From a virus (lineage: Duplodnaviria > Heunggongvirae > Uroviricota > Caudoviricetes), in IMG/VR virus record IMGVR_UViG_3300005253_000530: a stretch of 64,000 nucleotides of DNA. One strand, 5' to 3'. The notes under the pieces were generated by a model. That model saw only the letters and a list, made by a program, of their open reading frames with translations. It made no database searches and was not told the DNA's origin. Below are positions 889 to 58,957 of this stretch, one piece after another. Position 1 is the first letter of the stretch, and each line of letters starts with the position of its first letter. Made by a program: the position numbers and the translations under genes.

Positions 889-971
889 TGCCGATAGAGG
901 GAGTCGAACCCACACGCTTGTTAGGCACTGGTTTCTAGGACCAGCGTGTCTACCAATTCCACCACATCGGC
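889..971 (-). tRNA. tRNA-Leu (anticodon UAG), long variable arm
   Basis: GCCGATG acceptor, GGAATTGGTAGAC D-arm like bacterial tRNA-Leu, anticodon stem CUGGU/ACCAG loop CCUAGAA (C at position 33 is unusual), long variable arm, T-arm GGGTTCGACTCCC. Confidence 0.65.
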
Positions 972-1844: not shown

Positions 1845-1917
1845 TGCCAGCTCACGGAATCGAACCATATCCTTGGGTACTTCACGCCCTTATGCGGACC
1901 ACCTACACCAAGCTGGC
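1845..1917 (-). tRNA. atypical tRNA-like gene (good acceptor and T-arm, non-canonical D and anticodon arms; possibly Phe-GAA-like or pseudogene)
   Basis: Acceptor GCCAGCT/AGCTGGC perfect, U8, G18G19 present, T-arm UAUGG-TTCGATT-CCGUG; but D-stem does not pair and anticodon arm forms only GGG/CCC with a 9-nt loop CGUGAAGUA. Confidence 0.35.
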
Positions 1918-1925
1918 TTACATGT

Positions 1926-1999
1926 TCGGAGTAGTAGGATTCGAACCTACGGCCCTCGCGCCCCAAACGCGATGCGCTACCCGACTGCGCTATACTCCG
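1926..1999 (-). tRNA. tRNA-Pro (anticodon UGG)
   Basis: Acceptor CGGAGTA/TACTCCG, D-arm GCGC-AGTCGGGTA-GCGC, anticodon stem TCGCG/CGCGA loop UUUGGGG, T-arm GTAGG-TTCGAAT-CCTAC. Confidence 0.75.
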
Positions 2000-2007
2000 T
2001 TTATTTA

Positions 2008-2085
2008 TGGTCGGGGCGGTAGGATTCGAACCTACGGCCCTCGCGCTCCAGACGCGATGCTCTGCGCAGACTGAGCTACACCCCG
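2008..2085 (-). tRNA. tRNA-Pro-like (UGG) tandem paralog, genomically encoded CCA, atypical D- and anticodon loops
   Basis: Same anticodon stem and T-arm as the neighbouring Pro gene; loop UCUGGAG (C33); D-loop lacks GG; 3' end CGCCCCG-A-CCA encoded. Confidence 0.5.
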
Positions 2086-2856
2086 TTATATTTAACAACC
2101 ATCACCTAAATCTTTAGGATCTATACCATCCTCCCAATGATTATGATGTATGAATTCTATTTCATTTATTCTATGCCCGCCCACTCTATTGTAATCAAAT
2201 CCACCATCAACAAAGGTCTCAGCTGGGCAGCCACAACTTTGAAAATCATGACGGTACATTGAGTGTAATACTTTTTTACACGCTGGACATTTTATTTTTC
2301 CGCCTATAATAATTCTCCTTCCATTTTTTACTCATATTTTTACCACGATGCTCCAGCAGGATATTGTAAATAACATCCACATAGCGGGCATTCTACTTCA
2401 GTTATACTTTGCTCAATATTAAACTCAGTCTTACATTTTTCACAGCATATTTTTGTGCCTCCTGGAATATCATCAACAAAAAGCATATCTCTAACAAAAA
2501 GTATGTTTGGTTTGGTGTTTACTTTATTTGGTAGTCGAGATATTTTAACTTCATCGTGAGCAGATGGGGTTGCTTTTGACATAGCTTCATCAAATGTTGC
2601 AGCTTCCACATACCATGTTCTAACAACTTTAAGTTTAGCCATCCTAATTCTCCTTTTGTCTAGGTTTTTAATAGCTGTATTCTTTGGCAGTTGGCATTTT
2701 CCAAAAGATCAATGATCTCTTCTAGTGCTCTTACTTCTACTGTAGTTACGTCTGTGCCTAATATAGGCATAGCCACGCTTTCCATTTTTATCTCGTTCCT
2801 AATTTTTTCTGACATACTTTTTAATAATTCGATTCTATGCACTGTAATTCCTCCTT

Positions 2857-2929
2857 TGCTCCGACCGGGAATTGAACCCAGCTTTCTGCCTTGAGAGGGC
2901 AGTGTCCTAAACCGATAGACGACCAGAGC
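2857..2929 (-). tRNA. tRNA-Glu (anticodon CUC)
   Basis: Strong resemblance to bacterial tRNA-Glu (TCGTCTA...GGACAC, anticodon stem CTGCC/GGCAG loop CUCUCAA, T-arm CTGGG-TTCAATT-CCCGG). Confidence 0.7.
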
Positions 2930-3340
2930 TTACGATTTTTCAAGACTGCCCTGCAATCTTTGTATTACATGGACAAATCTTCTGTGCATACCATTAAGGG
3001 CTGATTTATACTCAGCGTCAGAATTGTAGTGATTATCTGCATTTAAGCATTTATCTAAGTGTAAGTCTGTGCAAGCTGAATCAAACAATTCTTTGAATCG
3101 TTTTTCTTCTATTTGTATAACTTTCATTTTAATTCTCCTTATAGACCATGCTCTTTTTACATATTGGGCACTCACTCAGTATTTTTTCACAGTTATCGCA
3201 GTCGCCGTGTTCGTCGCTATATGTGTACCCCGCTCCTTGATCCTCATCACAGTAACAATCTGAGACTTCCATCTTATGGTCATTGCCACAATTAACGCAT
3301 GTAATATCAAGAAGTCCTACTGACATGATAATCCTCCTTT

Positions 3341-3366
3341 TGCTCCGACCGATAGACGACCAGAGC
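3341..3366 (-). pseudogene. tRNA-Glu remnant (5' and 3' ends of the 2857..2929 gene joined, about 48 nt internal deletion)
   Basis: tgctccgacc|gatagacgaccagagc matches both ends of the tRNA-Glu(CUC) gene; the upstream RBS/gene-start context (aatcctcctttgctccgacc) is duplicated with it. Confidence 0.6.
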
Positions 3367-3658
3367 TTAATAAATCTTTTACTTTTACCAAATATTTGTT
3401 TCTTCTACATAAAGAACACTTCTAACGGGGATAAGTCTGTCACATGGGTCATCTCCTCCTGTTCCCCATTTTCCTATGACAAAAAAGCCTTGTTTACCCC
3501 ATCCCACTATTTCAACAGGGTCTATATTCCAATTGCGAGACCACTTGCTGCGTCCCCGCGCTTTATGTTTATCGTCAAAATATTGATATCCACAGTTATG
3601 CCTGTTTACCTCTACTTTTTCCCCGTTTATTAGTGTTAGCTTCATAATAATTCTCCTT

Positions 3659-3730
3659 TGCTTCCAGAGGGTATCGATCCCACTTCTGCGGGGTGAAGGC
3701 CCGCTATCCTAGCCAGTAGACGATGGAAGC
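3659..3730 (-). tRNA. tRNA-Glu (anticodon UUC)
   Basis: Acceptor GCTTCCA/TGGAAGC, Glu-type D-arm TCGTCTACTGGCTAGGA, anticodon stem GCGGG/CCCGC loop CCUUCAC, T-arm GTGGG-ATCGATA-CCCTC. Confidence 0.65.
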
Positions 3731-4131
3731 ATCTACTATATAAATGCTATACATATTAATGCGGCTATTATACTAATACCTATAAGTATAACAAGAACGT
3801 CATCAAATCCAAGTTTTCTTGGTTTATCCAATTCGTGAAAAAATCTATAATCTTCTGGATATATCATAATTTCTCCAATAAAAAAGGGATTCAGATTGTC
3901 TCTGAACCCCTTGGTGTTTTCTATGTTTCGTTTGTTTTATCCGGGATGTGGATCCGGATCCACCAAGGGATTTCCAATATGATTATCACGTTCTCTGAGC
4001 AAACTGGTGGCGGGCGTCCCTGTATATATAAATGAGACGGATAAACAACTCGGTTTTTGTTGCCTTAGTATGCTCGAAAACATTGTATCCTCCTTGGTTT
4101 AGTTGGTATTAATTTAGTATTGGTATATTAT

Positions 4132-4275
4132 GGTATATTAGGCCCTTCAGGTTTTCTACCACCACAAGGTTTTTTTGCTCCAGGGTCTGGATCAGTAATT
4201 GGTGGCCTCTTTATTGGTTTTTTTGTTCCATCGTCTGGTTCTTTTCTGTTTATTCTACCACCTCTTGGTTTCATT
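4132..4275 (-). CDS. small basic Pro/Gly/Lys-rich peptide (47 aa), strong RBS
   Basis: Own translation MKPRGGRINRKEPDDGTKKPIKRPPITDPDPGAKKPCGGRKPEGPNIP; preceded by AAGGAGGATACA-ATG; the identical RBS/start context is repeated at 4084 for a second small ORF. Confidence 0.4.
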
Positions 4276-4578
4276 GTATCCTCCTTGGTATTTTAGTGCT
4301 CTTTGTAGCACTCATATATATTATAGAACACAATTTCAATTTTGCTAGATTGTTTTTTGACTTTTTTCAAGAAAGGAGTTTGCCATCCAGCCGGTGTCTG
4401 TGCCAGCTGGACGACTTTGAAAGGAGTAAATCATGAAATAGAACAAATACCAAAACAAAACCAAGGAGTTACACCCCTTGTCACCAAATATTTTTATTTG
4501 GCCCACCCACTAAAATGTTATCCCGTTTTTTGTATGTTTTCTGCCCACCCACAAGTTTAATGTTATAGAGTTATAATG

Positions 4579-5259
4579 TTAGTTTTGTTTTCTATTATTA
4601 AAAGACACTCCTATGTAAGAAACGCCTTTTTCTTCTAATTTTTCGATACTCCATACATTGTTTGCTCCAGCAAACGTGGCAATAGATTCTAACTCATCTT
4701 TATCTATACCTTGTATAATTTCCAGCTTATCTTTTTCCTTTTCATCCATTTTTTCTATTGCCCGCTCGTTCTTAACTGCAAGCATTACATATGCATGAGA
4801 GCTATCTGTTCGTACTGATATGAGAGCTTCTTTAATAAGACTAGCTCTACTCATCATACATGGTAATCTTTCTAGTGAATCAGCTATTACAACAAAATCG
4901 TATGCTTCTATGTGTGGCTCTTTGTCATTACAATATGGTAAAAGAGGATCGAATACCTGTAAATCTATTTTGCTTGATATAGATATAGACATTAGATCTG
5001 ACAAGCACGAAGATTTTTGTGGTGCAAAAACTAATACACTACCAAATATAAGTTTCTTCTTAATCAATTCAGATAGTAATGATGTCTTTTGTTTCTTCTG
5101 GCCTTTTTTTAAGGAAACCCCGATTGCTTTGGCAAATTTTCCTTTATCTTTTTTATCTTCTTCGTGTTTTTCGTCATCCATGCGCCATATGTCTGTACTG
5201 TCTATAGTAAAAGGGCTACTATGACCATAATCAGATGAAGTATCGCTATATCTTCCCAT
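4579..5259 (-). CDS. hypothetical protein adjacent to DNA methyltransferase
   Basis: 226-aa ORF, 4-nt gap to MTase gene; no motif recognised. Confidence 0.5.
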   Translation of the reverse strand: MGRYSDTSSDYGHSSPFTIDSTDIWRMDDEKHEEDKKDKGKFAKAIGVSLKKGQKKQKTSLLSELIKKKLIFGSVLVFAPQKSSCLSDLMSISISSKIDLQVFDPLLPYCNDKEPHIEAYDFVVIADSLERLPCMMSRASLIKEALISVRTDSSHAYVMLAVKNERAIEKMDEKEKDKLEIIQGIDKDELESIATFAGANNVWSIEKLEEKGVSYIGVSFNNRKQN

Positions 5260-5262
5260 ATT

Positions 5263-6075
5263 TTAACCTTCCAGACCAGGAAATATTCTATTCTGATCAG
5301 TGTATTTTTGTATTCTCTTTATGGATCTGTTTGTATAGTCCTCACTAAGTTCGAAGCCTATCCATTGTCTTTCTAAAATTTCTGCTGCCAAACAAGTGGT
5401 TCCCATTCCTGAAAAGATATCTAATACTGTGTCTCCTTTGTAAGATAGCTGTTGTATAAGCCTCTTAGGTAGTTCTATCGGGAACATAGCAGGATGTTCA
5501 TACAGTTCATTCATACGAGATTCAGGAGCAAATTCCCATAAAGCCAGGCTATACTCAATAAACTCTTCCTTACTCACGGTTATATTTTCTTTCCGACCTG
5601 ATTTTTTTTGGCTTCCGTTACAAAATATCAGTATGTATTCAAAAGGGGTTGGAAATGAGGGATTGGATGGTGACTTCCAGCTACCCCACGCTGTTCTATT
5701 TCCTATCTGATTTTTGTTCCATATAATTACGGTCTTTATCAAATACCCCAACTCTTTTGTCATAAACTGAATGATATCTGTATGTGTAGGCACCGCCCCA
5801 TTTTTTCCGTCACCTATGTTTATGCATACTCTGCCGCCCTCTACCATTTTTGGCTTTAGAATGGCAAATATATTACATAGCCATCGTATATATTCTTGAT
5901 GATCTAAGTTATCGTTGTAAAGATCATATGGATTTTTATTGTACTTATTTTTTCCCAGATCTACATTATAAGGGGGACTACAAATAGTTATATCTATAGA
6001 TTCATCTGGTAGTTTGGGGATTAACTCTAAACAATCTCCACAGTGTATTTTATTTATCCAGTTTTGTATCGACAT
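5263..6075 (-). CDS. DNA methyltransferase, beta class (N4-cytosine or N6-adenine)
   Basis: Motif IV SPPY near N-terminus and motif I FSGMGTT near C-terminus (IV...I order). Confidence 0.8.
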   Translation of the reverse strand: MSIQNWINKIHCGDCLELIPKLPDESIDITICSPPYNVDLGKNKYNKNPYDLYNDNLDHQEYIRWLCNIFAILKPKMVEGGRVCINIGDGKNGAVPTHTDIIQFMTKELGYLIKTVIIWNKNQIGNRTAWGSWKSPSNPSFPTPFEYILIFCNGSQKKSGRKENITVSKEEFIEYSLALWEFAPESRMNELYEHPAMFPIELPKRLIQQLSYKGDTVLDIFSGMGTTCLAAEILERQWIGFELSEDYTNRSIKRIQKYTDQNRIFPGLEG

Positions 6076-6950
6076 TATATATATCTACCTCTTTTATCAC
6101 GATTTCTTTGTGCAGTGCCCCAATAGTATTCTAGATATTTGTTATCTATTAGATAATTAAATTTTTTATTCTTTCTTTCCATAAATATAGATGCATCTCT
6201 ATAAATATAATGGTAGAATGAAAGTATATTTTTTTTGCGTGTTAGAATAACATACCACAATTTATTTTTTGCTTTCTTATTCATATAGGGGGTGATTTGG
6301 CAGCCCTCCATACCTTCTCTTACTAGTATTTCTTTTATAAAAGACATAACACTTTTTGTACCAGCTATATTTAATATCGGAGCTGGATATTTAGATCTTT
6401 TTTGATACACAATAGATATACTACCGTCGCCATCAAAATATCCTCTTATAAAATGCTTTTGTAAGTTTACTGGTAATATTGTATCTTCTGGAAATGATAG
6501 TATCAAGGACTTTCTTGGCATACATCCTTTTGATATCAACGCTTTTACTAGTTTTTTGCTACCAATTTCTATTTGATATACATTAGTATTTTTAACAGGC
6601 TTAAATGGGTAATTTGAATTAAGACATTCATTAAATTTTATAAATATATCTTTGTCTCTTTTATGTTGTTTAAATGATAATGAATGGCTTGTGTCTTTTC
6701 TGATTCTTACACACCCATCAGCATATAAAAATCCTAGCCAATATGCTTTATGTTCTGTATTTATAGTTTCAAAATAAGTTTCATCTATTTCATATATTCT
6801 GGATGTATTCATCTCTATTTGATTTGAATACAATATTCTTCTGATAGGTGTTATAGATGTCTCTAGTATTTTGGCTACTTTGCGTAATGATCTACATTCA
6901 TTATATAATTTTATGACCTGCTTTTTATTCAATTCTATTATGGATGGCAT
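6075..6950 (-). CDS. LAGLIDADG homing endonuclease (two-motif, free-standing)
   Basis: Two LAGLIDADG motifs WLGFLYADGCV and FIRGYFDGDGSI; stop overlaps MTase start (TAATG). Confidence 0.8.
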   Translation of the reverse strand: MPSIIELNKKQVIKLYNECRSLRKVAKILETSITPIRRILYSNQIEMNTSRIYEIDETYFETINTEHKAYWLGFLYADGCVRIRKDTSHSLSFKQHKRDKDIFIKFNECLNSNYPFKPVKNTNVYQIEIGSKKLVKALISKGCMPRKSLILSFPEDTILPVNLQKHFIRGYFDGDGSISIVYQKRSKYPAPILNIAGTKSVMSFIKEILVREGMEGCQITPYMNKKAKNKLWYVILTRKKNILSFYHYIYRDASIFMERKNKKFNYLIDNKYLEYYWGTAQRNRDKRGRYI

Positions 6951-9422: not shown

Positions 9423-10790
9423 CTATTTCAGTGCTGTGGATAAATATTTAGACACTTCCTCTATAAGAACGTCTCTTTGGTTCATCGATTGATCCTCTAT
9501 TACTATAGATAATAAATAGTTTAGTATATGACCTATAGTAGGACCAGGCTTCAAATTGAATTCTTCTATGAGTACGGTGCCATCTATATTCAGATCTTTA
9601 ACATGTAGCACTCTAGATTGATTATAGACTTGTTTTATACGTTTCTCAAAAGATATTTGTCTCGGTGATATTTCACTGAGATTTAGACCATTTGCTGCTC
9701 TGTCAGCTTTTCTTAGTAAAAATACTGGCATACGGCTTAGCTTTTTTATTTCTTTGTTCGAGATATGTATTTTAGCTATAAATCTGCGAACTGCTGCATC
9801 TGACCACCTATTAGGCTCATAGTTGTACATATGATTATATATTAGGTCAGATACTACTAATGCCATTTCTTTGTCGAATTTTAACCTTCTTAGTATGCGC
9901 CTCGCCATTTTTGCGCCGGTGACTTCATGATTATAGAACGTTACTTTATATTTGCCTCCTCTTACAACCTCTTCTCTTACCTGTGGCTTGCCGACATCAT
10001 GTAATAAAGCTGCTAATCTCAATACCAAGTCTCTTTCGGCATTACCACAAGCTGTTAAGCAATGAGTTAATACATCATATTTATGATATTTCCTGTTTTG
10101 TGTTACCCCGTCACATATACTTAGTTCAGGTATGATCATATGCATAAGACCTGAGTCGTGCATTGTTCTCAGATATTTTGAAGGCTTTTGGCTCATAACT
10201 ATTTTTATGAACTCAAATTTTATTCTATTTATAGATACTTTCTTTACTAATGCATGGTTTGATTTAATCGCATAAAATAAATTGCTATCTATTCTGTAAT
10301 TGAGGTGTGCTGCCAGCGACAGAGTTTCCATCATAATAGCTGGATTTTGTTTCGTAACTAGATCTGCCTTTCCAATGACTTTAATTTTTCTGTTCCGAAT
10401 ATCGTTTCGACCACGATAAATGTCTATAAGACCTTTTGGGCCTTTTGATGCTATAGGTAGATACATCGCATTTACTGTAAATGCCTTTTCTTTTGCATCC
10501 TCCTTTAATGTGAAATATGGACTATATTTACCTCTTTTCTTTGGATTCCGTATAATGAAATTTATGTCATCTGTGGAAAACGAGATACATCCCTTTAACT
10601 TCTCTATTTTTAGATTTTTACGATGCCGGCGTAAATATTTTGATACTGTTTGTAATGATATTTGTCTTACTACTATCTCTATTTTGGTGGACTTTTTTCG
10701 CCTCACAAGATTACAAACGTATCTGCCTGCATAATATATTTCAGCCGGAGTCTCCTTGTTTAGTTTCTTCAGTATTGATATTATTTTCAT
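9423..10790 (-). CDS. CCA-adding-enzyme/poly(A)-polymerase family protein with HD domain; head-domain catalytic motifs degenerate
   Basis: Class-II NTase body motifs FTVNAMYL, DIYRGRNDIRNRKIKVIG, ETLSLAAHLNYRID and HD motif LLHDVGKP; but GGxxRD...DxD replaced by AGRYVCN...KIEIV. Confidence 0.65.
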   Translation of the reverse strand: MKIISILKKLNKETPAEIYYAGRYVCNLVRRKKSTKIEIVVRQISLQTVSKYLRRHRKNLKIEKLKGCISFSTDDINFIIRNPKKRGKYSPYFTLKEDAKEKAFTVNAMYLPIASKGPKGLIDIYRGRNDIRNRKIKVIGKADLVTKQNPAIMMETLSLAAHLNYRIDSNLFYAIKSNHALVKKVSINRIKFEFIKIVMSQKPSKYLRTMHDSGLMHMIIPELSICDGVTQNRKYHKYDVLTHCLTACGNAERDLVLRLAALLHDVGKPQVREEVVRGGKYKVTFYNHEVTGAKMARRILRRLKFDKEMALVVSDLIYNHMYNYEPNRWSDAAVRRFIAKIHISNKEIKKLSRMPVFLLRKADRAANGLNLSEISPRQISFEKRIKQVYNQSRVLHVKDLNIDGTVLIEEFNLKPGPTIGHILNYLLSIVIEDQSMNQRDVLIEEVSKYLSTALK

Positions 10791-14408: not shown

Positions 14409-15494
14409 TCACATGTCTCCCCTCATTAAGGCGGCTATTACGGCTTGTGCTTCTTCATCATTACGAACATTACGCATAACTCTGGTCATACCGCCATTAG
14501 GAGCCTCATCTGCTACTGCTGCACCAACCGCTCGGCCCCGTCTTGCTGCAGGCGCCGGTCTTGCTGCAGGACGTTCTTCTCTAGCAGGAGCCTCAATTTC
14601 ATTGATCTTGGCCCGGAATGCTTCCACATATTTCTGTAAAGCTGTTCCTTGTAGACCGGGGCCGCTGTTGATCTCGATAAGATAAGGGTTATTGTCCAAT
14701 CCAATTGCGCAATCGACCGCACCAAAGTCCAAACCGGTAACTTCTACGGACTTTATGGCCATAGCCTTCAATGCGTCTGAAACATTATTTAACGTGACGC
14801 CGGAAAACTTCCATCCCCTTTTGTTGCTTCGGACTATACGATCTGGCAGTTCAGCTTCCTTCACTAACAGGCTAAGAACATAATTCAAAGTGGATTCATC
14901 CAGATTTTGATTATTTTTCTGTGCATAATCTAGCACTTTTTCTTTACGCTGTGCGATCCAGCCGGCATCGGTCGGGTTTTCAACCTTCTTTACTGCATAT
15001 ATAACCTGACCAAAAGCCACATGGAGCCGATATTCGTCTTTGATGTCAATATAGTTCTGAAAATACTGGGCACCGTCATGAATGGCTCTTTCAACATGTT
15101 GCTTATTTAAACATGTCCAGAATCCTTTACCGCCCTGGTGAAAATTTGTGCGACCAACAAGCGGCAATTTGATGTCACTTCTCCGCCGGTCCATTGCAGC
15201 TATGACCTCATCAGCTCCGCAAAAGGCTGAGATAGCCGGTTTTGTCGCTCGATTTCCATACAAAGATGTCAATGTACTCATTTTGTTCCGGTTGTTTCGA
15301 ATTTTATCCGGGTGATTAAGTATGGTTGCGTTATCCAAACGTACAGCCGCATCTGTCTTGGCTCCCCATCCGATTATGATATCACCATTTTGGATACTCC
15401 GGGGCTTTGACTTTGTACCAGTTAATCCCAATGCGTCCGCTAAAGCCTGGCCGGTTACATCAGTTGCTCCACTAAACCAAATATATTTTGACAT
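14409..15494 (-). CDS. ATP-grasp ligase (RimK/alpha-L-glutamate-ligase-like) with GC-rich Ala/Arg/Pro-rich C-terminal tail
   Basis: ATP-grasp motifs EYRLHVAFGQV, GLDFGAVDCAIGLDNNPYLIEINSGPGLQG; last about 60 aa PAREERPAARPAPAARRGRAVGAAVADEAPNGG encoded by locally GC-rich DNA. Confidence 0.75.
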   Translation of the reverse strand: MSKYIWFSGATDVTGQALADALGLTGTKSKPRSIQNGDIIIGWGAKTDAAVRLDNATILNHPDKIRNNRNKMSTLTSLYGNRATKPAISAFCGADEVIAAMDRRRSDIKLPLVGRTNFHQGGKGFWTCLNKQHVERAIHDGAQYFQNYIDIKDEYRLHVAFGQVIYAVKKVENPTDAGWIAQRKEKVLDYAQKNNQNLDESTLNYVLSLLVKEAELPDRIVRSNKRGWKFSGVTLNNVSDALKAMAIKSVEVTGLDFGAVDCAIGLDNNPYLIEINSGPGLQGTALQKYVEAFRAKINEIEAPAREERPAARPAPAARRGRAVGAAVADEAPNGGMTRVMRNVRNDEEAQAVIAALMRGDM

Positions 15495-15764: not shown

Positions 15765-17108
15765 TTATATTATGAAATTACTATTACCAACCCATGTGTG
15801 CTTCAATCCTTTCTCCCTTTCATTCAGCACATTCTGAGGTAATCTAACTACCTCTATAAATTTATCTATATAATCAGCATACTCTCTGTATGTCTGTAAT
15901 GACCTGTATCTTGACTTTAGCTCATCGAAATAACTTTTTCTGAATTCTATTTCCCATTTATGTAATATATTTTGCATAGCTCCAGAGCTAGAAGTAGTAT
16001 TAAATGCCTTTGTAATTTCTATATTCTTCCATTGATCAAAAGACATATCGAAGAAAGTCAAATCAGTGTGGGCATACCAATCATCGGTCTCTTGGTGTTC
16101 TTCGGTCATAATCAAAGAATGCTTAAAATTACCATCTTCTAAGGCTCTAAAATATGCGTGAGCTATAGCTTTTACTGTGCCTATGACTATTCTGGCCAGT
16201 TCTGGATGAGTTAACCACTCACCACTTAAAGTACGATACTCTAATCTATTATGATCAGTCTTGTGATCTCCAAAGCGACCAAATGACTTTCTACGCTTCA
16301 TTCCATTCTTTTTACCATCAAGCTTCATCATTGGTACAGCTACATAATCGTCTAATATTCTTTGTAGACACGCGTACACTGCGTGTGAGTAATTACTACC
16401 AAATGAACTTATCTTTTGAGCTAAATTTGCTGGTGTCCCTAAATGTATGTGGCCTCCAACAGGCCAGTCCCTTCGACTGTTGTCAGGATCCGCACCCGAT
16501 TCATGCCCAGAATGGTTACACCCACCGACCCATTCATACAGAGCTATTAACTTTGTATTAGGGTGATTTGTTAGTATGCCATGTATATTACTTACAAAAT
16601 CTTCTACTAGTATCGCAGGCTTTGGCCTTAGTTCAGCCAATGGCCCGTCTGATCCGAGCTCGTCATTATGACTCAGATTATTTACTTTTGATGCATACAT
16701 TATGTTACCATCCTTATTAAATAACATAAACTCAGGGTCACCGCCTACTACTGTGTCCTCAACTGTATCTGCTAACCATATATTCTCTTTACTCCCGCTA
16801 CCGTTCTTACAGACATAGCTAAATATAGTAGAAGTTACAAAACCAACCCTTTCAAAATCGTCAGCACTCATAGATTCTTTAGCTTTTTTTAGATCTGAAG
16901 AGTAAGCTTGGAATATTTCGAGACTTTTACTTCTGTTTATTCGTCCATTTGTATCAGTATTAGGCCATACCTCTACAACTTTTTCATCAGCTAGCCCAAG
17001 ATTTTCTCTAGCTTTTACTCCTAGTCTGATCAGACCGTTTTCATTCCTATCATTCTTTCTGTTGGAATCCATTCGGTCTGATATGACTAATATTAATGGA
17101 GCTTTCAT
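15765..17108 (-). CDS. GCS2/glutamine-synthetase-like carboxylate-amine ligase (amidoligase), paralog B
   Basis: GGDPEFMLFNKDGN ... GSDGPLAELRPKP ... GGHIHLG; shared with 22726..23928 and 41042..42268. Confidence 0.6.
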   Translation of the reverse strand: MKAPLILVISDRMDSNRKNDRNENGLIRLGVKARENLGLADEKVVEVWPNTDTNGRINRSKSLEIFQAYSSDLKKAKESMSADDFERVGFVTSTIFSYVCKNGSGSKENIWLADTVEDTVVGGDPEFMLFNKDGNIMYASKVNNLSHNDELGSDGPLAELRPKPAILVEDFVSNIHGILTNHPNTKLIALYEWVGGCNHSGHESGADPDNSRRDWPVGGHIHLGTPANLAQKISSFGSNYSHAVYACLQRILDDYVAVPMMKLDGKKNGMKRRKSFGRFGDHKTDHNRLEYRTLSGEWLTHPELARIVIGTVKAIAHAYFRALEDGNFKHSLIMTEEHQETDDWYAHTDLTFFDMSFDQWKNIEITKAFNTTSSSGAMQNILHKWEIEFRKSYFDELKSRYRSLQTYREYADYIDKFIEVVRLPQNVLNEREKGLKHTWVGNSNFII

Positions 17109-17120
17109 ACGTCATCCCTC

Positions 17121-18944
17121 CTAACTTTTTGTTTCTTTTGCTTTCTTAATGACTTCTTTTACCTCTTTAATCATTTCTTGTTCTCGGGTATTAAATACTT
17201 CTGCTATTTTATCCATGTTCACTGAAATGTCACTTCCAGACACTGCGTTAAACAGTCTGGCTCTTGCACTAAGATTTTGGCCCTTTCCATTGCTAATACT
17301 TGAAGTCACATCATAGAATTTTGCAAGTGCTAGAACCATAGACTTCAATCCAGCTATATGACTTTCTCTGCGTTTAGATTTCTCGTCGTCAGCTGAAGAT
17401 GGGCCTTCTGATTTTTTCATAGCTGTTTCATATCCGGCCATGAACCCGTCCTTCCAGTTGATATTGAATGCTCTGTTGGCTACCATAACTATGCCAAGCT
17501 GTTCGGCTTTCTTCTCATTTTGAATATCTATAGCAGAAATAAGATCTTCCATGTTCCCATATCCCTTTTTATCTATAGGCATGTCAGTATATGCATTAGT
17601 AGCAGCTTCTATAATCTCTTTGGGATATTGCTTCATGTTAACTTCAGTTACTTTGATATCTTTTTCATCTATATCTATGACTTCATCATCTGATCCTTTA
17701 TTCTCAGTATATGTTGTTTTGTCATCGATATCCACCGAAGAGTCACTATCTTTTTGCTCAATAGTATCCTTGTCTCCATCATCAGTGTCTGATTTTTTAT
17801 TAGCTATTATCATTGCTGTTGTAGTAGATCCAGTGGTTGTATTCTTTACTGTTTTGACCTCGTCAGTATCTACAGATATAGCAGCAGACTCGTCATCTTG
17901 TATTTCAGTATCTCCAATTTTTACTACATACTTTTTCGTAATCTTATCAAATACTCTACGTGTTGGTTCTTCCTTTTTCTCATCGGGTTTATTATAAGAG
18001 TACGGCTTACCGTAATTTTTACCGGTGCTATATGTCGTAGCAGTTGTAGCTATCCATATTTTGCTACTTCGCTCTATTTTACTCCACTCACCTAGGTCAT
18101 CAATGGTAGTATCTTCTGTAACCTGCTGAGTCAAATCAAATATCATAGCGGAATCATCTGGCAGACTTTTCTTTTCAACAAGCTTTTTATTGAGAAAGGT
18201 TGGTAGATCCGAACCACAAAGCTCAGGATAATATCTAGGCCATCTTACATATCTGAAATGTATTTTATTCCAGAACTTTTCTTCAGATATTATTAGTAAT
18301 ATACCGTATTCTTTCAGCAGCACAAATTCTACAGGGCGACTATCACGAAATATTGGTACTTGATATGGGTTATCAGCATTGAACAGGGAGATTGCAAACT
18401 GACCATCTAGTCTATTTACTATATTTTGTATCATATTCATAGTAAATGGCTCTTTGCCACAGTTCGTGTAATGATCAAATAGCCTGAATATTGCTTCACT
18501 GTCTACTTTTCCATCTCGTTTGCATCCAAGCTTTTTGAATATTTCATCTGGATTCCTAATCACTCCATTATGAATGCCTATTAAATTACCAATTTTGATA
18601 GGGTGATTATTTTCATTGTCTTCTTTATCACCGGCTGTAGCAGCTCGACAATGTCCCAGAAAAATTCTACTAGGGGCTTTATGTTCTCTCCACACTTTTA
18701 ACAGGCTGCCGTACCATTCTTTCGATTCACCAAACATAGATAAGTAATCAGTGGCTCGTTGGCCTCTTTTTAATCCCATATATTTGCCATCATCGAACAA
18801 TATGGCTGCTCCTGTGGCATCTTTGCCTCTTTCTTCGGTGGCTATCAGCAGTTCGGTTGTGAAGTATTGCATTACCCCTTGCCTTACGATTTCGTCCTTT
18901 TCGCTTAATTTGCCGAATGCCAGTGCAACTACTATTCCGCACAT
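17121..18944 (-). CDS. class-II glutamine amidotransferase (Ntn, N-terminal Cys) with long low-complexity C-terminal extension
   Basis: MCGIVVALAFG N-terminus (catalytic Cys2), GHCRAATAG, Gn_AT_II-type core; Thr/Asp/Ser-rich linker then C-terminal domain. Confidence 0.7.
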   Translation of the reverse strand: MCGIVVALAFGKLSEKDEIVRQGVMQYFTTELLIATEERGKDATGAAILFDDGKYMGLKRGQRATDYLSMFGESKEWYGSLLKVWREHKAPSRIFLGHCRAATAGDKEDNENNHPIKIGNLIGIHNGVIRNPDEIFKKLGCKRDGKVDSEAIFRLFDHYTNCGKEPFTMNMIQNIVNRLDGQFAISLFNADNPYQVPIFRDSRPVEFVLLKEYGILLIISEEKFWNKIHFRYVRWPRYYPELCGSDLPTFLNKKLVEKKSLPDDSAMIFDLTQQVTEDTTIDDLGEWSKIERSSKIWIATTATTYSTGKNYGKPYSYNKPDEKKEEPTRRVFDKITKKYVVKIGDTEIQDDESAAISVDTDEVKTVKNTTTGSTTTAMIIANKKSDTDDGDKDTIEQKDSDSSVDIDDKTTYTENKGSDDEVIDIDEKDIKVTEVNMKQYPKEIIEAATNAYTDMPIDKKGYGNMEDLISAIDIQNEKKAEQLGIVMVANRAFNINWKDGFMAGYETAMKKSEGPSSADDEKSKRRESHIAGLKSMVLALAKFYDVTSSISNGKGQNLSARARLFNAVSGSDISVNMDKIAEVFNTREQEMIKEVKEVIKKAKETKS

Positions 18945-41041: not shown

Positions 41042-42268
41042 TTAGTACAATTCTTTCAAAAGACTTGCTTGAAATTTCATAAAATCCTTATTATCCTTTA
41101 GCTTTTGATATGATCCCATTACCATGCCGCGGCTTGACCGAAAGTCGTTGTTTACACACCATTCCTTTTTTAGATCTTTATCAATTACACTATATACACC
41201 GTTTTCACGCATGTATTCAAATGAAGCCAATGAATGTACAATTTGACCTTCTGGGCCTTGTGGCGGATTTTCCCACGGCGAATGCCCTTCCTCTACGTAA
41301 CTTTGTATAGATCCTCTTAAAGATCCTATATGTAAAGGGTTACATGAAGACAGCCCTGTAGATGCAAGGTAGGGTCGCAGATTTTTCCATATTTTATCCG
41401 CTGTGATAATATCGCTCTCATCGATAACTCCACGAATAGTTTCTTCATCGAATCCTACGGCTTCTCTATAAGTTTCGTCCATGTTAATAGTCACCATTGA
41501 CCATGCCATTCTTGCCAATCCATATACTAATGATACGAACATTGGCGATTTTAGCCACCAGCAACTGGGAGTTCTGTACTCTATGCCATAAGGAGTCGGT
41601 CTAAAACATCCGGCTTTACCATATTTTGATCTTCTCAGTTTAGATCCATTGTCGTTATCAAGGCGCATTGTAGGTATGGTAAGTAGTAAATCCAAGAATC
41701 GTATAAGCCGAATATGCCCGTCTTCTGTTTTTGCAAGCTTGTACTCCGGCTGATCCTTCGATAGATACGGTGAAGACAATCCAAGGTGTATGTGACCACC
41801 GGCGTATCTATGTGGATGCTCAGAGGCGTCCATTTCTGGAGTGTTTGTGGTACATGTATAAGCATTGAAATCTGGTTCGCATCCAAATACACGTGCTTCT
41901 GGATCAGCTTTGTTTATAACTGACTCGCGGATTTTTTCAGCTGGAGAAAGAATAATTTGATGATTCTTTGGTATTCTATTATAAACTTCTCTCCATACCT
42001 TTTCGATATTACCTGCGAAGTATTCTCTACACGACTGATGAGCTACAGCCATCTCGGCCTGTATACCATCGAAAAACAGTCTGCTAAGTTTACCGTCCCT
42101 GGCTTGTACTTTTATAGGATCATTTTTGCTGGGGAAGAAATTATCAGCACTTCGCACCCGGCCTTTCTCATCACCTATAAAAAACTCTGGGTCTCCACCT
42201 ATCCTGGGTAAATAATTGACTTTGTATATTCTGCGTCCTATTTCCTTATCTATCTCCGAAATCTTCAT
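41042..42268 (-). CDS. GCS2/GS-like carboxylate-amine ligase (amidoligase), paralog C
   Basis: IGGDPEFFIGDEKG ... RYAGGHIHLG. Confidence 0.6.
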   Translation of the reverse strand: MKISEIDKEIGRRIYKVNYLPRIGGDPEFFIGDEKGRVRSADNFFPSKNDPIKVQARDGKLSRLFFDGIQAEMAVAHQSCREYFAGNIEKVWREVYNRIPKNHQIILSPAEKIRESVINKADPEARVFGCEPDFNAYTCTTNTPEMDASEHPHRYAGGHIHLGLSSPYLSKDQPEYKLAKTEDGHIRLIRFLDLLLTIPTMRLDNDNGSKLRRSKYGKAGCFRPTPYGIEYRTPSCWWLKSPMFVSLVYGLARMAWSMVTINMDETYREAVGFDEETIRGVIDESDIITADKIWKNLRPYLASTGLSSCNPLHIGSLRGSIQSYVEEGHSPWENPPQGPEGQIVHSLASFEYMRENGVYSVIDKDLKKEWCVNNDFRSSRGMVMGSYQKLKDNKDFMKFQASLLKELY

Positions 42269-53295: not shown

Positions 53296-53433
53296 TCAGC
53301 TGTCTATATTATCTTTAGCTTGTTCCATCAGCTTCAGTGCAAATTTAGAATCAGAGTATATAGATTGCATAGCTACCTCTAATTGTTTAATAGATCTTTG
53401 TATTGCTCTTTCTATTTTTATATTACGTTCCAT
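53296..53433 (-). CDS. small protein (44 aa), paralog of 45807..45989
   Basis: Own translation MERNIKIERAIQRSIKQLEVAMQSIYSDSKFALKLMEQAKDNIDS vs MERNKKIETPLENAINQLKTALQCIYSDPNTALKLIGAAKSNLD. Confidence 0.45.
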   Translation of the reverse strand: MERNIKIERAIQRSIKQLEVAMQSIYSDSKFALKLMEQAKDNIDS

Positions 53434-53698
53434 AATATTTATCTTTGTTATTCCTTTCTTTTCTTTTCTTTTCCATCAAAAACTCATCTTCCTTTTCCTT
53501 CCAGGTCCAACTTGTATACCAATTCAACTGAACATAGTTTGTTACACCACAATGTTTGCAAACAAATTCGGACTCTATATTTTTTTCCATTATATATCCG
53601 TCGGCATTGGCTTTTGCATCAGGCACTATGTCGTATTCAAATGGCGTAATCATGCTATCATGTAACCAACCACACTTTGCGCATTTAATCCTCATCAT
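53423..53698 (-). CDS. zinc-ribbon protein, copy 1 of duplicated module
   Basis: MMRIKCAKCGWLHDS...CKHCG; paralog of 58480..58662. Confidence 0.55.
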   Translation of the reverse strand: MMRIKCAKCGWLHDSMITPFEYDIVPDAKANADGYIMEKNIESEFVCKHCGVTNYVQLNWYTSWTWKEKEDEFLMEKKRKERNNKDKYYGT

Positions 53699-53707
53699 AA
53701 ACCTCCA

Positions 53708-53944
53708 TTATTCCTGTACAGTTTTACAACAGTAGATCCACCTAATGTAACGTATTTCCTTTATCAATGCCTTATATAGGGACATTTTACGCACAAGTAG
53801 CTCATCATACCCCCACTCATCAAGCACTTTTTTGAGTGCAAACGCGGCCATGTTTATAATAAAAAACGTTGCCAGCGCGACAATAAGTAATGGTTTGTTA
53901 GTTTTCATTAATAGTTCTCCCCGGGACATTTTTGGTTCGGGCAT
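53708..53944 (-). CDS. small membrane protein, copy 1 of duplicated module (true start probably MKTNKPLL)
   Basis: One TM helix; about 80% nucleotide identity to 58700..58957 over the core. Confidence 0.5.
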   Translation of the reverse strand: MPEPKMSRGELLMKTNKPLLIVALATFFIINMAAFALKKVLDEWGYDELLVRKMSLYKALIKEIRYIRWIYCCKTVQE

Positions 53945-54821
53945 ACAGTATCCATTCCATCATTCTCTGGGAACCATGCTCCGCAATCCGGGCAAAACTC
54001 GTCTTCGTGTTCTTGGTACCAGTCGATAAAGTCCAGATTAGTATCAAAATCTTTGTTAATTAATACCATATCCGATTCTGGTACCCATGCCATCCCACCA
54101 TCAGCAGTGTTGGGATCTTTTCTTTTAAAATCTTTCACCCCTTTACCAAGAAGCATTACAGAAAAGTCGCTTTGGCTTCTTTCAACTAAAAGAACTTCAC
54201 GTCCTCCAAAACTTTCTCGCCATGAGCTTTCATTAGCAAAAAATCTAGGCCCTGTTTGTTTTGGCTTTTCTTTGATAGTTAGAATACGAGCCCGACAGCC
54301 AATAGTAAGTCGTTGTTTCTTTTTCATCATAATTCTCCTATAGACCGATTAGAAACCATTTTGCACATAATCCCAGCATAAATTGCATGCTCTACAAGTT
54401 CTATCTGATGCTGACTCACCCTCGCACATACAAACCAAATCTTGGCCACATATTGGACAGATTCTGACATTGACACAGCGTTTTTCGTATTCACGCTGTT
54501 TGACTTTCTTAAGTATCTCAGCTTTTTCTTTTTCCGTGACATACTTTCCTCTAATTTGCATTCCCAGCAAAATAGCCTTAATACTTGTGTTCATCATAAT
54601 CCTCCCCCATTGTCTTTCCACTATAAATGTTCTGGTTTTATCGCAAAAACTGCTTATAAAATTTATTGTACTTAACCATACTATGCATTACTTTCCTACA
54701 GTTTTTACATGTAACTTTCTTACCAGACCGTTTTGCGTGACTTATGTTTATTCCACACATCGCTAAATATTCCCTATTAATCCCCTGCCTCAAATGTACT
54801 TTGTTAAGTTTGCAGAACATA

Positions 54822-56192
54822 TTATAGTCCTCCCATTGTAAATGCTCTAAGTATTAGTTCGTACATTAGTTTATCGTTGGTAGGGTCCAGTTCGTTATCT
54901 ATTATATGATCTTCTACCTGCTGTATGATCTGGCCTACGATTGGCCCAGGTTTTATACCTACGATCTCCATTACTCTTTTTCCACTTACCAGCTTTTTTG
55001 GTTTTTTAGTTACTTGGTCATGCCACTTCTCTGTAATTTCATATACCCGCTTCATTTCTTCTTCAAACTTGCCTTTATGTTTGAACTTTTCACCTCGACA
55101 AAACTCGTCCACTCTGGCAACCTCGGCCAGTACATCAAAATTCCCACTACCTACAAGTCTGGCAATTTTAGACGGCTTCATCTCTGATAGGTAGTGTAGT
55201 TTCATATGGTTTGCAGCTGCAAATACAATACTTTCTTTATGATACAGGCTGAATTTAAGCCTATCACATATATCGGCTGCCATCTTTGCACTATGGTATT
55301 CATGTCTTTTATAAGTAGGGTTTCCATCTATTTCTTCGAAAGTGACACATTTGCCTATATCATGTAAAAGGACAGCTATCTTGTAGATAGGATCTCCTTC
55401 CTTCATTAGATTAAGACATGCTATCACATGACCAAAAACGGTCGGGCTTTCAGGATGATACTCCATATTGTGTTCAAAGCATTTCATATCCCATACTTCC
55501 GGAAGTATCAGCTTAAGTAATCCTAAATCATCAAGTATAAGTATAAATCTTGCAAACTGAAGACCGGACTTTTTAGCAGCTTTTATTATTTCCACACGTA
55601 TTCTTTCTGGTGTGACCTTATGTATGAGTTCAGATAGATCTATTACAGCTTGCTTGGTTCTTTCGCCCAAAAAAAAACCTTCGAAGGCTGCAAATCTCGC
55701 TGCCCGTATCATTCTTAAGTGATCTTCTTGAAATCTCTTATAGGGATCTCCTACTGCTCTAACCAGCTTACTTTGTATGTCTGCTGTGCTACCTACATAG
55801 TCTATAAAAACTCCATTACTATCGAGACCAAGAGCATTTATAGTGAAATCTCTTCTGACAACATCCTGCTTGAAATCATTCACTATTTCTACACTGTCAG
55901 GGCGTCTACCATCCTTATACTCACCATCTGAGCGAAACTGAGCCACTTCAAACATAAACTCGGCCCATCTGACTGTGAGTATACCAAAGTTTTTGGACTT
56001 TCCTATATTGTAGGCCGTAAAGTTCTTTTCCAGGATTTCTATTGGGCAATTAGTGGCTATATCCACATCATTACTTACTTTATCAAGCATAAGATCTCTC
56101 GGTGTGCCTCCCACTATGTAAGCCTTATATCCAAGCTCTTCTATTCTTTTCAGGAGGTCTATACCAGTATCTAATAGATTGTTAGTTTTCAT
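54822..56192 (-). CDS. cca: tRNA nucleotidyltransferase (CCA-adding enzyme) with HD domain, catalytic motifs intact
   Basis: YIVGGTPRDLMLDKVSNDVDIAT (GGxxRD + DxD), RDFTINAL, ... LLHDIGK HD motif. Confidence 0.8.
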   Translation of the reverse strand: MKTNNLLDTGIDLLKRIEELGYKAYIVGGTPRDLMLDKVSNDVDIATNCPIEILEKNFTAYNIGKSKNFGILTVRWAEFMFEVAQFRSDGEYKDGRRPDSVEIVNDFKQDVVRRDFTINALGLDSNGVFIDYVGSTADIQSKLVRAVGDPYKRFQEDHLRMIRAARFAAFEGFFLGERTKQAVIDLSELIHKVTPERIRVEIIKAAKKSGLQFARFILILDDLGLLKLILPEVWDMKCFEHNMEYHPESPTVFGHVIACLNLMKEGDPIYKIAVLLHDIGKCVTFEEIDGNPTYKRHEYHSAKMAADICDRLKFSLYHKESIVFAAANHMKLHYLSEMKPSKIARLVGSGNFDVLAEVARVDEFCRGEKFKHKGKFEEEMKRVYEITEKWHDQVTKKPKKLVSGKRVMEIVGIKPGPIVGQIIQQVEDHIIDNELDPTNDKLMYELILRAFTMGGL

Positions 56193-57005: not shown

Positions 57006-57039
57006 AAAAAAAAAGCCGGGAGTCGTTGTAACGACCCCC
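57006..57039 (-). terminator. rho-independent terminator downstream of SPFH gene
   Basis: Minus strand GGGGGTCGTTACAACGACTCCC hairpin (9-bp stem, 1 mismatch, UACA loop) followed by nine U. Confidence 0.7.
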
Positions 57040-57071
57040 AGCCTTACTTAACAGTCATAACCTGCAAGCGT

Positions 57072-57953
57072 TTACTTACCTATATTGATTAATGGCGTGG
57101 CCTGTGAGGCGCCGTCGGTAATAATGATCGTGTTTCCGTCTATTTTATCGTACAATTTGAGCTTGGCCTCAATTTCTCTCAGCCGGAGATACTCTTTGGT
57201 CAACGACTTGCCCATCACAAGATTATATGTGGCTTCTGCCTCGGCTTCTGCTGCCCTCGTGATCTTCATTTGCTGAGCGATCTTCAATCTGTTCTTCACT
57301 TGTAGTAGCTTGATGGCCTGAGTGGCTTTCTCCCTGCCGATCTCAATCTCTCGCTCTTTCTTAAGGGTCATAGCCCTGGTAATGACGGGGGGATAATCAA
57401 GGTTGGAAGTTACCACCATTGTGATCTCAACTGGAGTACCTTTAACAGCAAGCAATAATTCGTCACGGATAGCCTTTTCGATCTCTTTCCTGTTCTTTCG
57501 GATGTCCGTGGTGTTATACCTTGATACGATACTACGAGCAATGGATACGGCAGGCTTTTGGACATAGGTGTTGTATAGATGCCCAAACGCAAGTCTACCG
57601 GAGTCGCCGATCCATCTGATCTTTGCGCCTTGGCGCTTTAGAACCGCCTTGAGACTTTTACCGTCCTGGATTTTGAGCCTGGATCTTATTTCGAGATCAA
57701 ATTTCATATTCAAATCGTCCAAGCACAGCACTTCCATCTTCTCCGTTTTTGTGACCTCTTCCATTGACACCAATATCATACGGTCTCTATTATAGGCCGT
57801 GTGGTTACCCGGCTGCAACACTTTACCGGTTAAACCATCAGGGGTTTGAACCATACCAATATATCCAGGCGGCACACGCTCGGTACATCCGGCGAACACG
57901 ATAAACAATGCTAAAACTGCAATAAGTGTCATAAATCTTGTAAATATTTTCAT
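57072..57953 (-). CDS. SPFH/band-7 (stomatin/prohibitin/HflKC-like) lipoprotein
   Basis: Signal peptide with lipobox FAGC; SPFH core and coiled-coil C-terminus; local GC content clearly above genome background. Confidence 0.7.
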   Translation of the reverse strand: MKIFTRFMTLIAVLALFIVFAGCTERVPPGYIGMVQTPDGLTGKVLQPGNHTAYNRDRMILVSMEEVTKTEKMEVLCLDDLNMKFDLEIRSRLKIQDGKSLKAVLKRQGAKIRWIGDSGRLAFGHLYNTYVQKPAVSIARSIVSRYNTTDIRKNRKEIEKAIRDELLLAVKGTPVEITMVVTSNLDYPPVITRAMTLKKEREIEIGREKATQAIKLLQVKNRLKIAQQMKITRAAEAEAEATYNLVMGKSLTKEYLRLREIEAKLKLYDKIDGNTIIITDGASQATPLINIGK

Positions 57954-57981
57954 GGGAATATCCTCCTATTCCTGTTTAAGG

Positions 57982-58419
57982 TTATTGGTTTTGATACTTT
58001 TTCTTGATTTCATCAAGATAAGCATCTGCCTCTTCCTGTTCAGCCTTGAAGCCTTCTCTCTGTTTCTTCAAGAACGGATTGACTTTGGCCTCGGCTTCCT
58101 TTTGGATCTCAGCCGGTGTCTTCATATCCGGCGCTTTGTCTACATATTCCATTACGCCGATGTCTGAAGGCAGTTCTTGCGGTGGTGTTCCTGGGCCAAA
58201 TGCGCTGAGGGTAGCAAATAAAAATGCAGCCAAAACGAATGATTTAAACGCTAACCATTTCGTATATGACTTCCATAATCCGTCCTCATCTCGTAAGCTT
58301 ACATAGAGCCTATAGACGGCTATCAATACCCACACACCAAGTAGGATGTAGATAAGGATCTTTAGAAACATTACCCATCCTACTAACCCAGTGCCGATGT
58401 TCAGCAACCAATCTAACAT
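57982..58419 (-). CDS. polytopic membrane protein, probable partner of SPFH protein (NfeD/YqiJ-like role)
   Basis: 3-4 TM helices then charged C-terminus; same GC-elevated block, immediately upstream of SPFH gene. Confidence 0.45.
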   Translation of the reverse strand: MLDWLLNIGTGLVGWVMFLKILIYILLGVWVLIAVYRLYVSLRDEDGLWKSYTKWLAFKSFVLAAFLFATLSAFGPGTPPQELPSDIGVMEYVDKAPDMKTPAEIQKEAEAKVNPFLKKQREGFKAEQEEADAYLDEIKKKYQNQ

Positions 58420-58479
58420 ATTATCCCTCCTTTCTGTTTTTTAGACAAGTTTTATATAGATATACAGTAGGCGTACATC

Positions 58480-58662
58480 TTATTTTCCTATTGTATACCA
58501 TATGATACTTATCTTGTTAACTAGTCCACACTTCCCACACACAAACTTTGAATTTGATCTCTTCCAATTAGAAGACACTTGTCTGGAAGGAACAACGTCA
58601 TATTTGAACGGAGTTGATGTACTATCGTGCATATGCCCACACTTTGCACATTCTATTCTCAT
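58480..58662 (-). CDS. zinc-ribbon protein, copy 2 of duplicated module
   Basis: MRIECAKCGHMHDS...CGKCG. Confidence 0.55.
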   Translation of the reverse strand: MRIECAKCGHMHDSTSTPFKYDVVPSRQVSSNWKRSNSKFVCGKCGLVNKISIIWYTIGK

Positions 58663-58699
58663 TTTCTTACCTCCTTTTAAGTTTTTCTATAACCTTCTC

Positions 58700-58957
58700 C
58701 TATGCTTGTGTAGTTTTACGGCGGTATATGTCCTTAATATAAAGCACCTCATATTTTAATGTTTTAAATAAAGATTGACTGCTTATTAATAGTTCACCAT
58801 ATTCCCACTCATCAAGCACTTTTTTAAGTATAAATGCCGTCATATTTACAATAAAAAATAATAGTAGTGCAACAATAAGCAATGGTTTGTTAGTTTTCAT
58901 CATAATCCTCCCCTGGACATTTCTGATTTGGACATACAGTATCCATTCTATTTTCAT
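58700..58957 (-). CDS. small membrane protein, copy 2 of duplicated module
   Basis: MKTNKPLLIVALLLFFIVNM...; N-terminal extension is out-of-frame remnant of a 140-aa gene's 3' end. Confidence 0.5.
   Translation of the reverse strand: MKIEWILYVQIRNVQGRIMMKTNKPLLIVALLLFFIVNMTAFILKKVLDEWEYGELLISSQSLFKTLKYEVLYIKDIYRRKTTQA

Follow-up and report, generated by a model that had tools for sequence, protein, structure and literature searches.

A phage SPFH lipoprotein and its two-transmembrane partner: a candidate membrane scaffold encoded by large phages

Cages built from SPFH (Band_7) proteins have been solved for HflK/C and for the prohibitins PHB1/2 (7vhq, 9cz2, 8rrh, and 9o9z), in which an SPFH domain, followed by a coiled coil and a C-terminal segment, faces the periplasm (HflK/C) or the intermembrane space (prohibitin). 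In SPFH-NfeD operons (QmcA-YbbJ, 8z5g; YqiK-YqiJ; YuaF-FloT of Bacillus subtilis), the SPFH gene is accompanied by one for a transmembrane (TM) partner of ∼110 to 150 amino acids (aa) with a soluble C-terminal part and an NfeD/OB-fold. Phages, too, encode SPFH lipoproteins, assigned to phrog_200; the papers that note these genes call their function unclear (PMC13239085, PMC7760394), and the literature that we found on them consists of annotations, with no functional study, the transcriptome papers on PAK_P3 making no mention of the SPFH gene. PM0222 of Pasteurella multocida, an HflK/C-like SPFH protein of a prophage island, is likewise phage derived and is likened to these proteins here by its description; it was studied experimentally with regard to virulence, not to a role in a phage, and the paper describes no partner gene (PMC9872710). 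Here, we analyze a cassette of two genes, one for an SPFH lipoprotein and one for a small protein with two TM helices, in a 64,000-nucleotide (nt) stretch of DNA from a tailed virus of the Caudoviricetes (IMG/VR record IMGVR_UViG_3300005253_000530), referred to as the window, and we tentatively propose that the pair builds a membrane scaffold for the phage.

Compared with these systems, the window's lipoprotein agrees with those of isolated phages in family, length, lipobox, and the presence of a small two-TM neighbor, but it is less than 30% identical to them and lies in a separate uncultured clade with contigs reaching at least 270 kb, and its partner does not match the PHROGs to which their partners belong. 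With HflK/C and prohibitin it shares the full-length fold and an SPFH domain that is predicted to face the equivalent compartment, at an identity of only 13 to 20%. Those proteins carry an N-terminal TM anchor, form a hetero-pair, and have a known FtsH-type client, whereas here the anchor would be a lipid-modified cysteine, the SPFH gene is single, the partner is phage encoded, and no such client is known. The SPFH-NfeD operons have a TM partner of similar size and layout, but the window's partner lacks the NfeD/OB-fold; moreover, QmcA and its NfeD partner lie on the cytoplasmic side, whereas the window's pair is predicted to be periplasmic.

The sequence-only reading of this DNA had recognized an SPFH/Band_7 lipoprotein with an FAGC lipobox, and profile searches bear it out. 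The protein matches Pfam Band_7 (PF01145) above the curated threshold (residues 26 to 211, E = 1.6e-14, 54.8 bits for a cut-off of 23.6) and phrog_200, annotated "lipoprotein," with E = 1.5e-37. A type II signal peptide makes up its N terminus, MKIFTRFMTLIAVLALFIVFAG-C23, in which K2 and R6 of the n-region precede LIAVLALFIVFAG-C23, so that the charged, hydrophobic, and lipobox elements are all present. When 50 homologs were aligned, all of them shared Cys23. Phenylalanine at position -3 of the lipobox is unusual, yet it is allowed by the PROSITE lipobox pattern. The protein is 100% identical to one from a marine-sediment metagenome and has 96 listed homologs, 42 to 83% identical to it, whose contigs reach 270 kb; no near-identical DNA of the window was found among 50,697 phage records. 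With the window's SPFH lipoprotein, a phage family that is already known and often annotated gains a new and divergent member.

An AlphaFold2 (AF2) model based on the 50-sequence alignment (pLDDT 87; both proteins of the pair were predicted as monomers) shows an alpha/beta SPFH domain, a long coiled-coil helix (residues 189 to 250), a second helix (253 to 269), and a C-terminal segment that is conserved ("GDKVIxTxG...P") but of low confidence in the monomer. Foldseek searches of the PDB place prohibitin first (8rrh/9o9z, E ∼1e-13), followed by HflK/C (7vhq/9cz2), stomatin, erlin, QmcA (8z5g, the QmcA-YbbJ complex), and flotillin, and the matches to cage-forming proteins run over the full length (260 to 300 columns, E from 1e-13 to 1e-7). 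As modeled, the protein would possess every element that its solved relatives use to form large ring or cage scaffolds. The first beta-strand of the model begins at residue 24, a single residue after Cys23, from which we suggest that the lipid anchor would hold the SPFH domain directly at the membrane.

This resemblance bears on one alternative, namely, that the lipoprotein mimics or competes with the host HflK/C cage, trapping or excluding FtsH or another inner-membrane client from the periplasmic side and altering the turnover of membrane proteins in favor of the phage. Few structures match the model as closely as those of HflK/C and prohibitin, the SPFH domain is likewise predicted to be periplasmic, and Kihara et al. 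(cited in PMC13086221) reportedly found that HflK/C regulates FtsH and affects phage lambda. We nevertheless regard this explanation as unlikely. The sequence has no specific affinity to HflK or HflC, as NCBIfam gives no significant match, and the best PDB match by sequence is a weak one to prohibitin-2 (E = 0.004). Furthermore, the constant presence of a phage-encoded partner suggests that the phage supplies the client or the anchor itself.

For the gene upstream, the sequence-only reading had anticipated a polytopic, NfeD-like membrane protein. A membrane protein is indeed encoded directly upstream, but it has only two TM helices, and its likeness to NfeD did not hold up. The AF2 model of this partner (pLDDT 75.6) is all-alpha, with helices at residues 8 to 44, 49 to 73, 102 to 112, and 115 to 143, a disordered proline-rich stretch at 74 to 101, and no beta structure, and a hydropathy scan agrees on two TM helices. 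A conserved FGPG motif closes the second TM helix and is followed by the proline-rich linker and two charged helices (102 to 143). The N terminus is short and free of K and R, and the loop between the TM helices (∼43 to 58) contains four K/R residues, which, by the positive-inside rule, predicts that the N terminus and the C-terminal tail are periplasmic and that the loop is cytoplasmic. Across all partner families inspected, the N terminus holds at most one K/R and the loop is rich in these residues; a hydrophilic tail past the second TM helix is found in every family except that of phage PhiSH19. In the alignment of relatives, the linker (0.87) and the tail (0.80), which carries the motif "EEADxYL," are more conserved than the TM parts (0.59 to 0.63), suggesting that the periplasmic tail is the constrained and probably binding part of the protein.

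Searches for a known family returned little. Neither the partner nor nine partners from other phages matched any Pfam family, NfeD included, at E <= 5; the only NCBIfam match fell far under its cut-off, a PDB profile search with the partner alignment gave chance-level TM matches only, and the window's partner falls into none of the PHROGs. We rejected an NfeD (PF01957) identity on the Pfam result and on the all-alpha model, which has no OB-fold, even though N-terminal TM helices and an adjacent, co-oriented SPFH gene are features that the partner has in common with NfeD proteins. An FxsA (PF04186) or T4 Imm-like identity was likewise discarded, none of the ten partners having a Pfam match at E <= 5. 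Of relevance to annotation, the GenBank note for KVP40.0338, the two-TM neighbor of phage KVP40 (L011, 3431-3790), cites PF04186, which current Pfam does not recover at E <= 5.

What distinguishes the two proteins is that their genes travel together. Both genes recur together in 16 related phage-like loci whose flanks differ. All six metagenomic relatives have a gene for a partner homolog of 134 to 145 aa upstream of the SPFH gene, amid differing flanking genes, directly in 5 and one small called open reading frame (ORF) away in locus L006. A hidden Markov model of the partner found its homolog adjoining the SPFH gene in all five independent IMG/VR loci, the pair was present in 3 of 3 phage-like contigs binned with metagenome-assembled genomes (MAGs), once with the partner downstream, and in both look-ups that started from the partner (P0113 and P0123) a Band_7 gene adjoined. 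Since the relatives were recovered through one gene or the other, it is partly by construction that all carry the pair. In the single, distant locus reached instead through its CCA-adding enzyme (L026, 41% identity), the pair was not found within 8 kb, an absence that carries little information. The spacing between the two genes in relatives is typically a few to ∼60 nt, with a 4-nt overlap in some loci, which fits coupled expression; it is wider, ∼157 nt, in L006. The ORF called there between the two genes (4840-5004) encodes 54 aa, is very basic, and may be spurious or a small insertion.

The pairing extends to isolated phages. Their database holds 117 records with an SPFH homolog, all below 30% identity, from phages of Pseudomonas, Vibrio, Aeromonas, Erwinia, Klebsiella, Acidovorax, and Stenotrophomonas. 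In all seven phages of different lineages that we inspected, the SPFH protein is a lipoprotein with an L-x-G-C lipobox, and an adjoining gene encodes a protein of 72 to 129 aa whose two TM helices flank a basic loop. This gene lies upstream of the SPFH gene in CHA_P1, RVTF4, RisingSun, KPN8, and PhiSH19, where the protein is 72 aa long and tail-less, and downstream in KVP40 and AhSzq-1. The PhiSH19 ORF (L020, JN126049, 1432-1650, minus strand; phrog_11680) is unannotated and sits in a 206-nt "gap" upstream, overlapping the start of the SPFH gene; the neighbor that is annotated as "superinfection exclusion protein" in this phage is a soluble acidic protein and not the partner.

Our preferred, if tentative, interpretation is that of a phage-built SPFH scaffold on the periplasmic face of the membrane that works with a dedicated partner. 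The secreted, lipid-anchored protein of prohibitin/HflK/C type would oligomerize into a ring or cage on that face, and the partner, as a small inner-membrane hairpin, would place its conserved tail in the same compartment as the SPFH domain, predicted to be the periplasm. The two would act as a complex in which the partner is the enclosed client or the anchor, as NfeD or FtsH is for cellular SPFH proteins. Outer-membrane lipoproteins need a disordered linker, according to published evidence, and because the tether after the lipid-bearing cysteine is very short in the model, we favor the outer leaflet of the inner membrane as the probable location; the tail-less PhiSH19 partner was also counted toward an inner-membrane location. 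The phage would thereby create a membrane compartment of its own in the cell that it infects. In this proposal we infer the oligomerization, the physical interaction, the identity of the membrane, and the biological role.

As for that role, the scaffold might condition or protect the envelope through a long infection cycle, blocking superinfecting phages or host suicide systems that target the membrane. The cassette lies in an accessory neighborhood of small genes and tRNA/RNA-repair genes, the latter represented by a CCA-adding enzyme in the window and in its closest relative (L001), RNA ligase in CHA_P1 and AhSzq-1, and RtcB in L006. Since genes for tRNA and RNA repair often serve counter-defense, envelope protection or exclusion is ranked first among the possible roles, although, taken by itself, we consider it possible but doubtful. 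Control of FtsH-type proteolysis, control of lysis, and a role in the virion would, as a guess, come next.

Several observations weigh against the proposed scaffold. The PhiSH19 partner has no tail, the partners of the isolated phages are spread over four distinct small PHROGs that have no assigned function, and an hhalign comparison of two partner families gave a probability of 85% that covered the TM segments only. With PADLOC-DB at E <= 1, no defense or anti-defense match was obtained for the SPFH protein or for the partner. As regards location, inner-membrane retention is signaled by Asp at +2 in E. coli and by Lys+3/Ser+4 in Pseudomonas, and no canonical retention signal was recognized in the lipoproteins of these phages, so that default sorting to the outer membrane is a real alternative. 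Outer-membrane vesicles have, in addition, yielded an HflK/C-like protein encoded by a prophage (PMC9872710), which likewise speaks for the outer membrane.

Outer-membrane sorting would suit another explanation, in which the pair serves lysis or its timing, either as a spanin-like bridge from an inner-membrane protein with a helical periplasmic tail to a lipoprotein of the outer membrane or as an SPFH cage in which a two-TM protein of the holin or antiholin kind is kept back until lysis. The missing retention signal and the SPFH protein of the vesicles just mentioned speak for it, small two-TM phage proteins are often holins, and the gene order, an inner-membrane protein followed by a lipoprotein, together with the periplasmic helical tail recalls i-spanin and o-spanin, as in Rz/Rz1 of lambda. 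Spanins, on the other hand, have a single-TM partner and lie in a lysis cassette, whereas the present partner has two TM helices, its lipoprotein is a 293-aa SPFH protein instead of a small proline-rich o-spanin, and no endolysin or holin family, nor any other lysis family, was seen among the neighboring genes scanned, those of the relatives being tRNA/RNA-repair genes and small unknown genes. The very short modeled tether past Cys23 would also argue against efficient export to the outer membrane, and T4-like phages such as KVP40 presumably encode canonical spanins as a rule. We find a function in lysis quite unlikely.

A place in the virion, or as an assembly scaffold, was suggested by the detection of the SPFH protein by mass spectrometry in preparations of RisingSun, Sajous1, and Eneladusvirus phages (PMC6034870, PMC10892097, PMC7760394). 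The peptide counts were very low, the RisingSun preparation, at least, was crude, and membrane cages or vesicles could cosediment with virions. The lipoprotein signal, moreover, exports the protein from the cytoplasm, where the virions of tailed phages assemble, and no structural genes lie near the loci examined except in KVP40, where the gene stands between baseplate genes. This explanation appears highly improbable to us, the most so of those considered here.

The remaining alternative is that of a classical moron, a host gene pair taken up recently that does the host's job of membrane microdomain organization and protease regulation, like the SPFH-NfeD pairs, and has no phage-specific role. 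The sequence-only reading had proposed a horizontally acquired moron, citing a G+C content (GC) above that of the phage and an own intrinsic terminator; these two observations stand, whereas a recent acquisition does not. The GC of both genes together is 0.447 against a window mean of 0.368 (standard deviation [SD] 0.025 in same-size windows; z = 3.1), a value reached by just 0.5% of equal-sized windows in the 64 kb, and the sole other region to match it lies at ∼14.3 to 15.5 kb. It corresponds to a RimK-like gene whose GC of 0.459 rivals that of the cassette, yet its GC at third codon positions (GC3) is only 0.40. For the SPFH gene, GC3 is 0.531, the top value among minus-strand ORFs, and for the partner gene it is 0.473, the background being 0.321 (SD 0.073, 99 ORFs), so that base composition clearly sets the cassette apart from its neighbors. 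At synonymous sites, C over T, G over A, and the GC of four-fold sites are all raised; such a parallel shift indicates a general change of composition and not mere codon preference, and it makes translational selection unlikely as the sole source.

The terminator that closes the cassette has 8 G-C pairs in its stem. A scan of the window's coding strand located no more than four hairpins followed by a T run, and this one is the strongest (ΔG -20.9). Hairpins rich in G+C also lie 3′ of the SPFH stop codon in L001, L003, L015/L016, and L018. In L007, a tRNA-like sequence (5838-6160) that ARAGORN left uncalled directly follows the SPFH stop codon, and a tRNA-Thr is called at 6074-6160; tRNA genes and not a terminator follow the cassette there. 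Composition and terminator would both be expected of a moron, as would the two further findings that homologs exist on Myxococcota chromosomes of higher GC and that the position of the cassette differs between relatives.

Against a recent uptake, every related phage contig that we examined carries the pair, at identities as low as 42% and amid differing flanks, and the pair has diverged in step with its surroundings. Relative to L001, the closest relative, on a 270-kb contig, the SPFH protein is 82% identical and the partner 66%, with 52 to 85% for flanking orthologs, and four-fold sites are conserved at 0.57 to 0.74 in the cassette and at 0.52 to 0.83 in the flanks, so that synonymous divergence equals that of the flanking genes. 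The excess of GC3 recurs in the low-GC relatives L001, L003, and L007, and in relative contigs of higher GC the GC3 of the pair is near background. Cellular homologs of the SPFH protein (L024 and L025, ∼3970-4900), 47 to 48% identical, occur on two chromosomal MAG contigs of Myxococcota (271 kb and 1.85 Mb; GC 0.54 to 0.56), among housekeeping genes that include those for thiolase, acyl-CoA synthetase, and a CcdA/DsbD-like protein. Neither has a two-TM partner alongside, so that the partner, which is not NfeD, looks like a phage-specific addition, and in a rough neighbor-joining tree both sequences nest inside the metagenomic/phage-like clade. These homologs offer a hint of the group to which the host belongs and of a source or sink of higher GC for the gene. 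On this evidence we consider the classical moron very unlikely.

Judged by sequence comparison, the cassette is most probably an old, self-contained unit that has been reshuffled among the large phages of one clade and not a recent acquisition. Its position varies between relatives, as expected for such a module: the gene resembling that at 58958 lies upstream of the pair in the window and downstream in L001, and the CCA-adding enzyme gene is upstream of the pair in L027 instead of downstream. Directly upstream of the cassette in the window are genes for a Zn-ribbon protein (58480-58662) and a one-TM protein (58700-58957), which are paralogs of 53423-53698 and 53708-53944, respectively, and a DNA repeat (58790-58951 and 53798-53960) is 81% identical over 163 nt. 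L001 has a single copy within 13 kb. The duplication of 58480-58957 and 53423-53960 may mark a recombination event that moved the cassette.

The features of the cassette are listed in Table 1. Every gene in this region of the window is encoded by the minus strand. The ribosome-binding sites of the pair are of AGGAGG type, and the arrangement is bicistronic, presumably a two-gene transcription unit. The leader could hold a promoter: its sole sigma-70-like match is weak (TTGTCT-17-GATAAT, 9/12), and the promoter type of the host may differ. Sigma-70-like matches are no more common here than in shuffled sequence, k-mer enrichment in the intergenic regions returned Shine-Dalgarno sequences only and no shared motif, and a candidate motif, CTAYTGTATA, was not enriched (21 matches for 18 expected).

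Table 1. Positions in the window of the two genes and of the elements associated with them
Feature	Position	Strand	Description
Intergenic leader 5′ of partner gene	58420-58479	minus	60 nt; Shine-Dalgarno AAAGGAGGG
Partner gene	57982-58419	minus	ORF, 145 aa; two-TM membrane protein
Spacer between partner and SPFH genes	57954-57981	minus	28 nt; holds Shine-Dalgarno of SPFH gene (AGGAGG)
SPFH/Band_7 lipoprotein gene	57072-57953	minus	ORF, 293 aa
Type II signal peptide, codons 1-23 of SPFH gene	57885-57953	minus	Lipobox F-A-G-C23
Intrinsic terminator after SPFH gene	57006-57045	minus	15-bp stem, 4-nt loop, T9

Elsewhere, the 64 kb contain two CCA-adding enzyme-like genes, at 54822-56192 and at 9423-10790, the latter being more divergent (phrog_2244, E = 1.9e-30 versus 6.1e-65). 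Seven tRNA genes (Thr, Leu, Phe, two Pro, and two Glu) occupy 397-3731 on the minus strand. At 14409-15494, 15765-18944, and 41042-42268 there are one ATP-grasp/RimK-like gene (phrog_2599), two COOH-NH2 ligase-like genes, and one glutamine amidotransferase-like gene. An Rfam search of the region from 55 to 61 kb gave no match.

Judged by the low accession number of phrog_200, the SPFH lipoproteins are among the larger protein families of phages; they are annotated in phages of Pseudomonas, Vibrio, Aeromonas, Erwinia, Klebsiella, and Salmonella, yet papers as late as 2026 still call their role unclear. The new point is the coupling of the lipoprotein to a fast-evolving, non-NfeD two-TM partner across very different phages, a partner that is absent beside two cellular homologs; we found no description of this constant pairing in the literature. 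What was a domain annotation standing alone thereby becomes a defined two-component system open to testing, whose partner is split over several orphan families, and tractable phages for such tests are available among the PAK_P3-like phages, KVP40, and the Vi01-like phages. A broader and, in our estimation, rather unlikely reading is that of a widespread, unrecognized two-component membrane system of large virulent phages, in which a periplasmic prohibitin/HflKC-like cage around the fast-evolving partner acts against superinfection or against abortive-infection effectors that target the membrane; the rapid divergence of the partner would then reflect an arms race. If the proposed cage on the periplasmic face is real, the prohibitin/HflKC class of membrane compartments would include one that is encoded by a virus.

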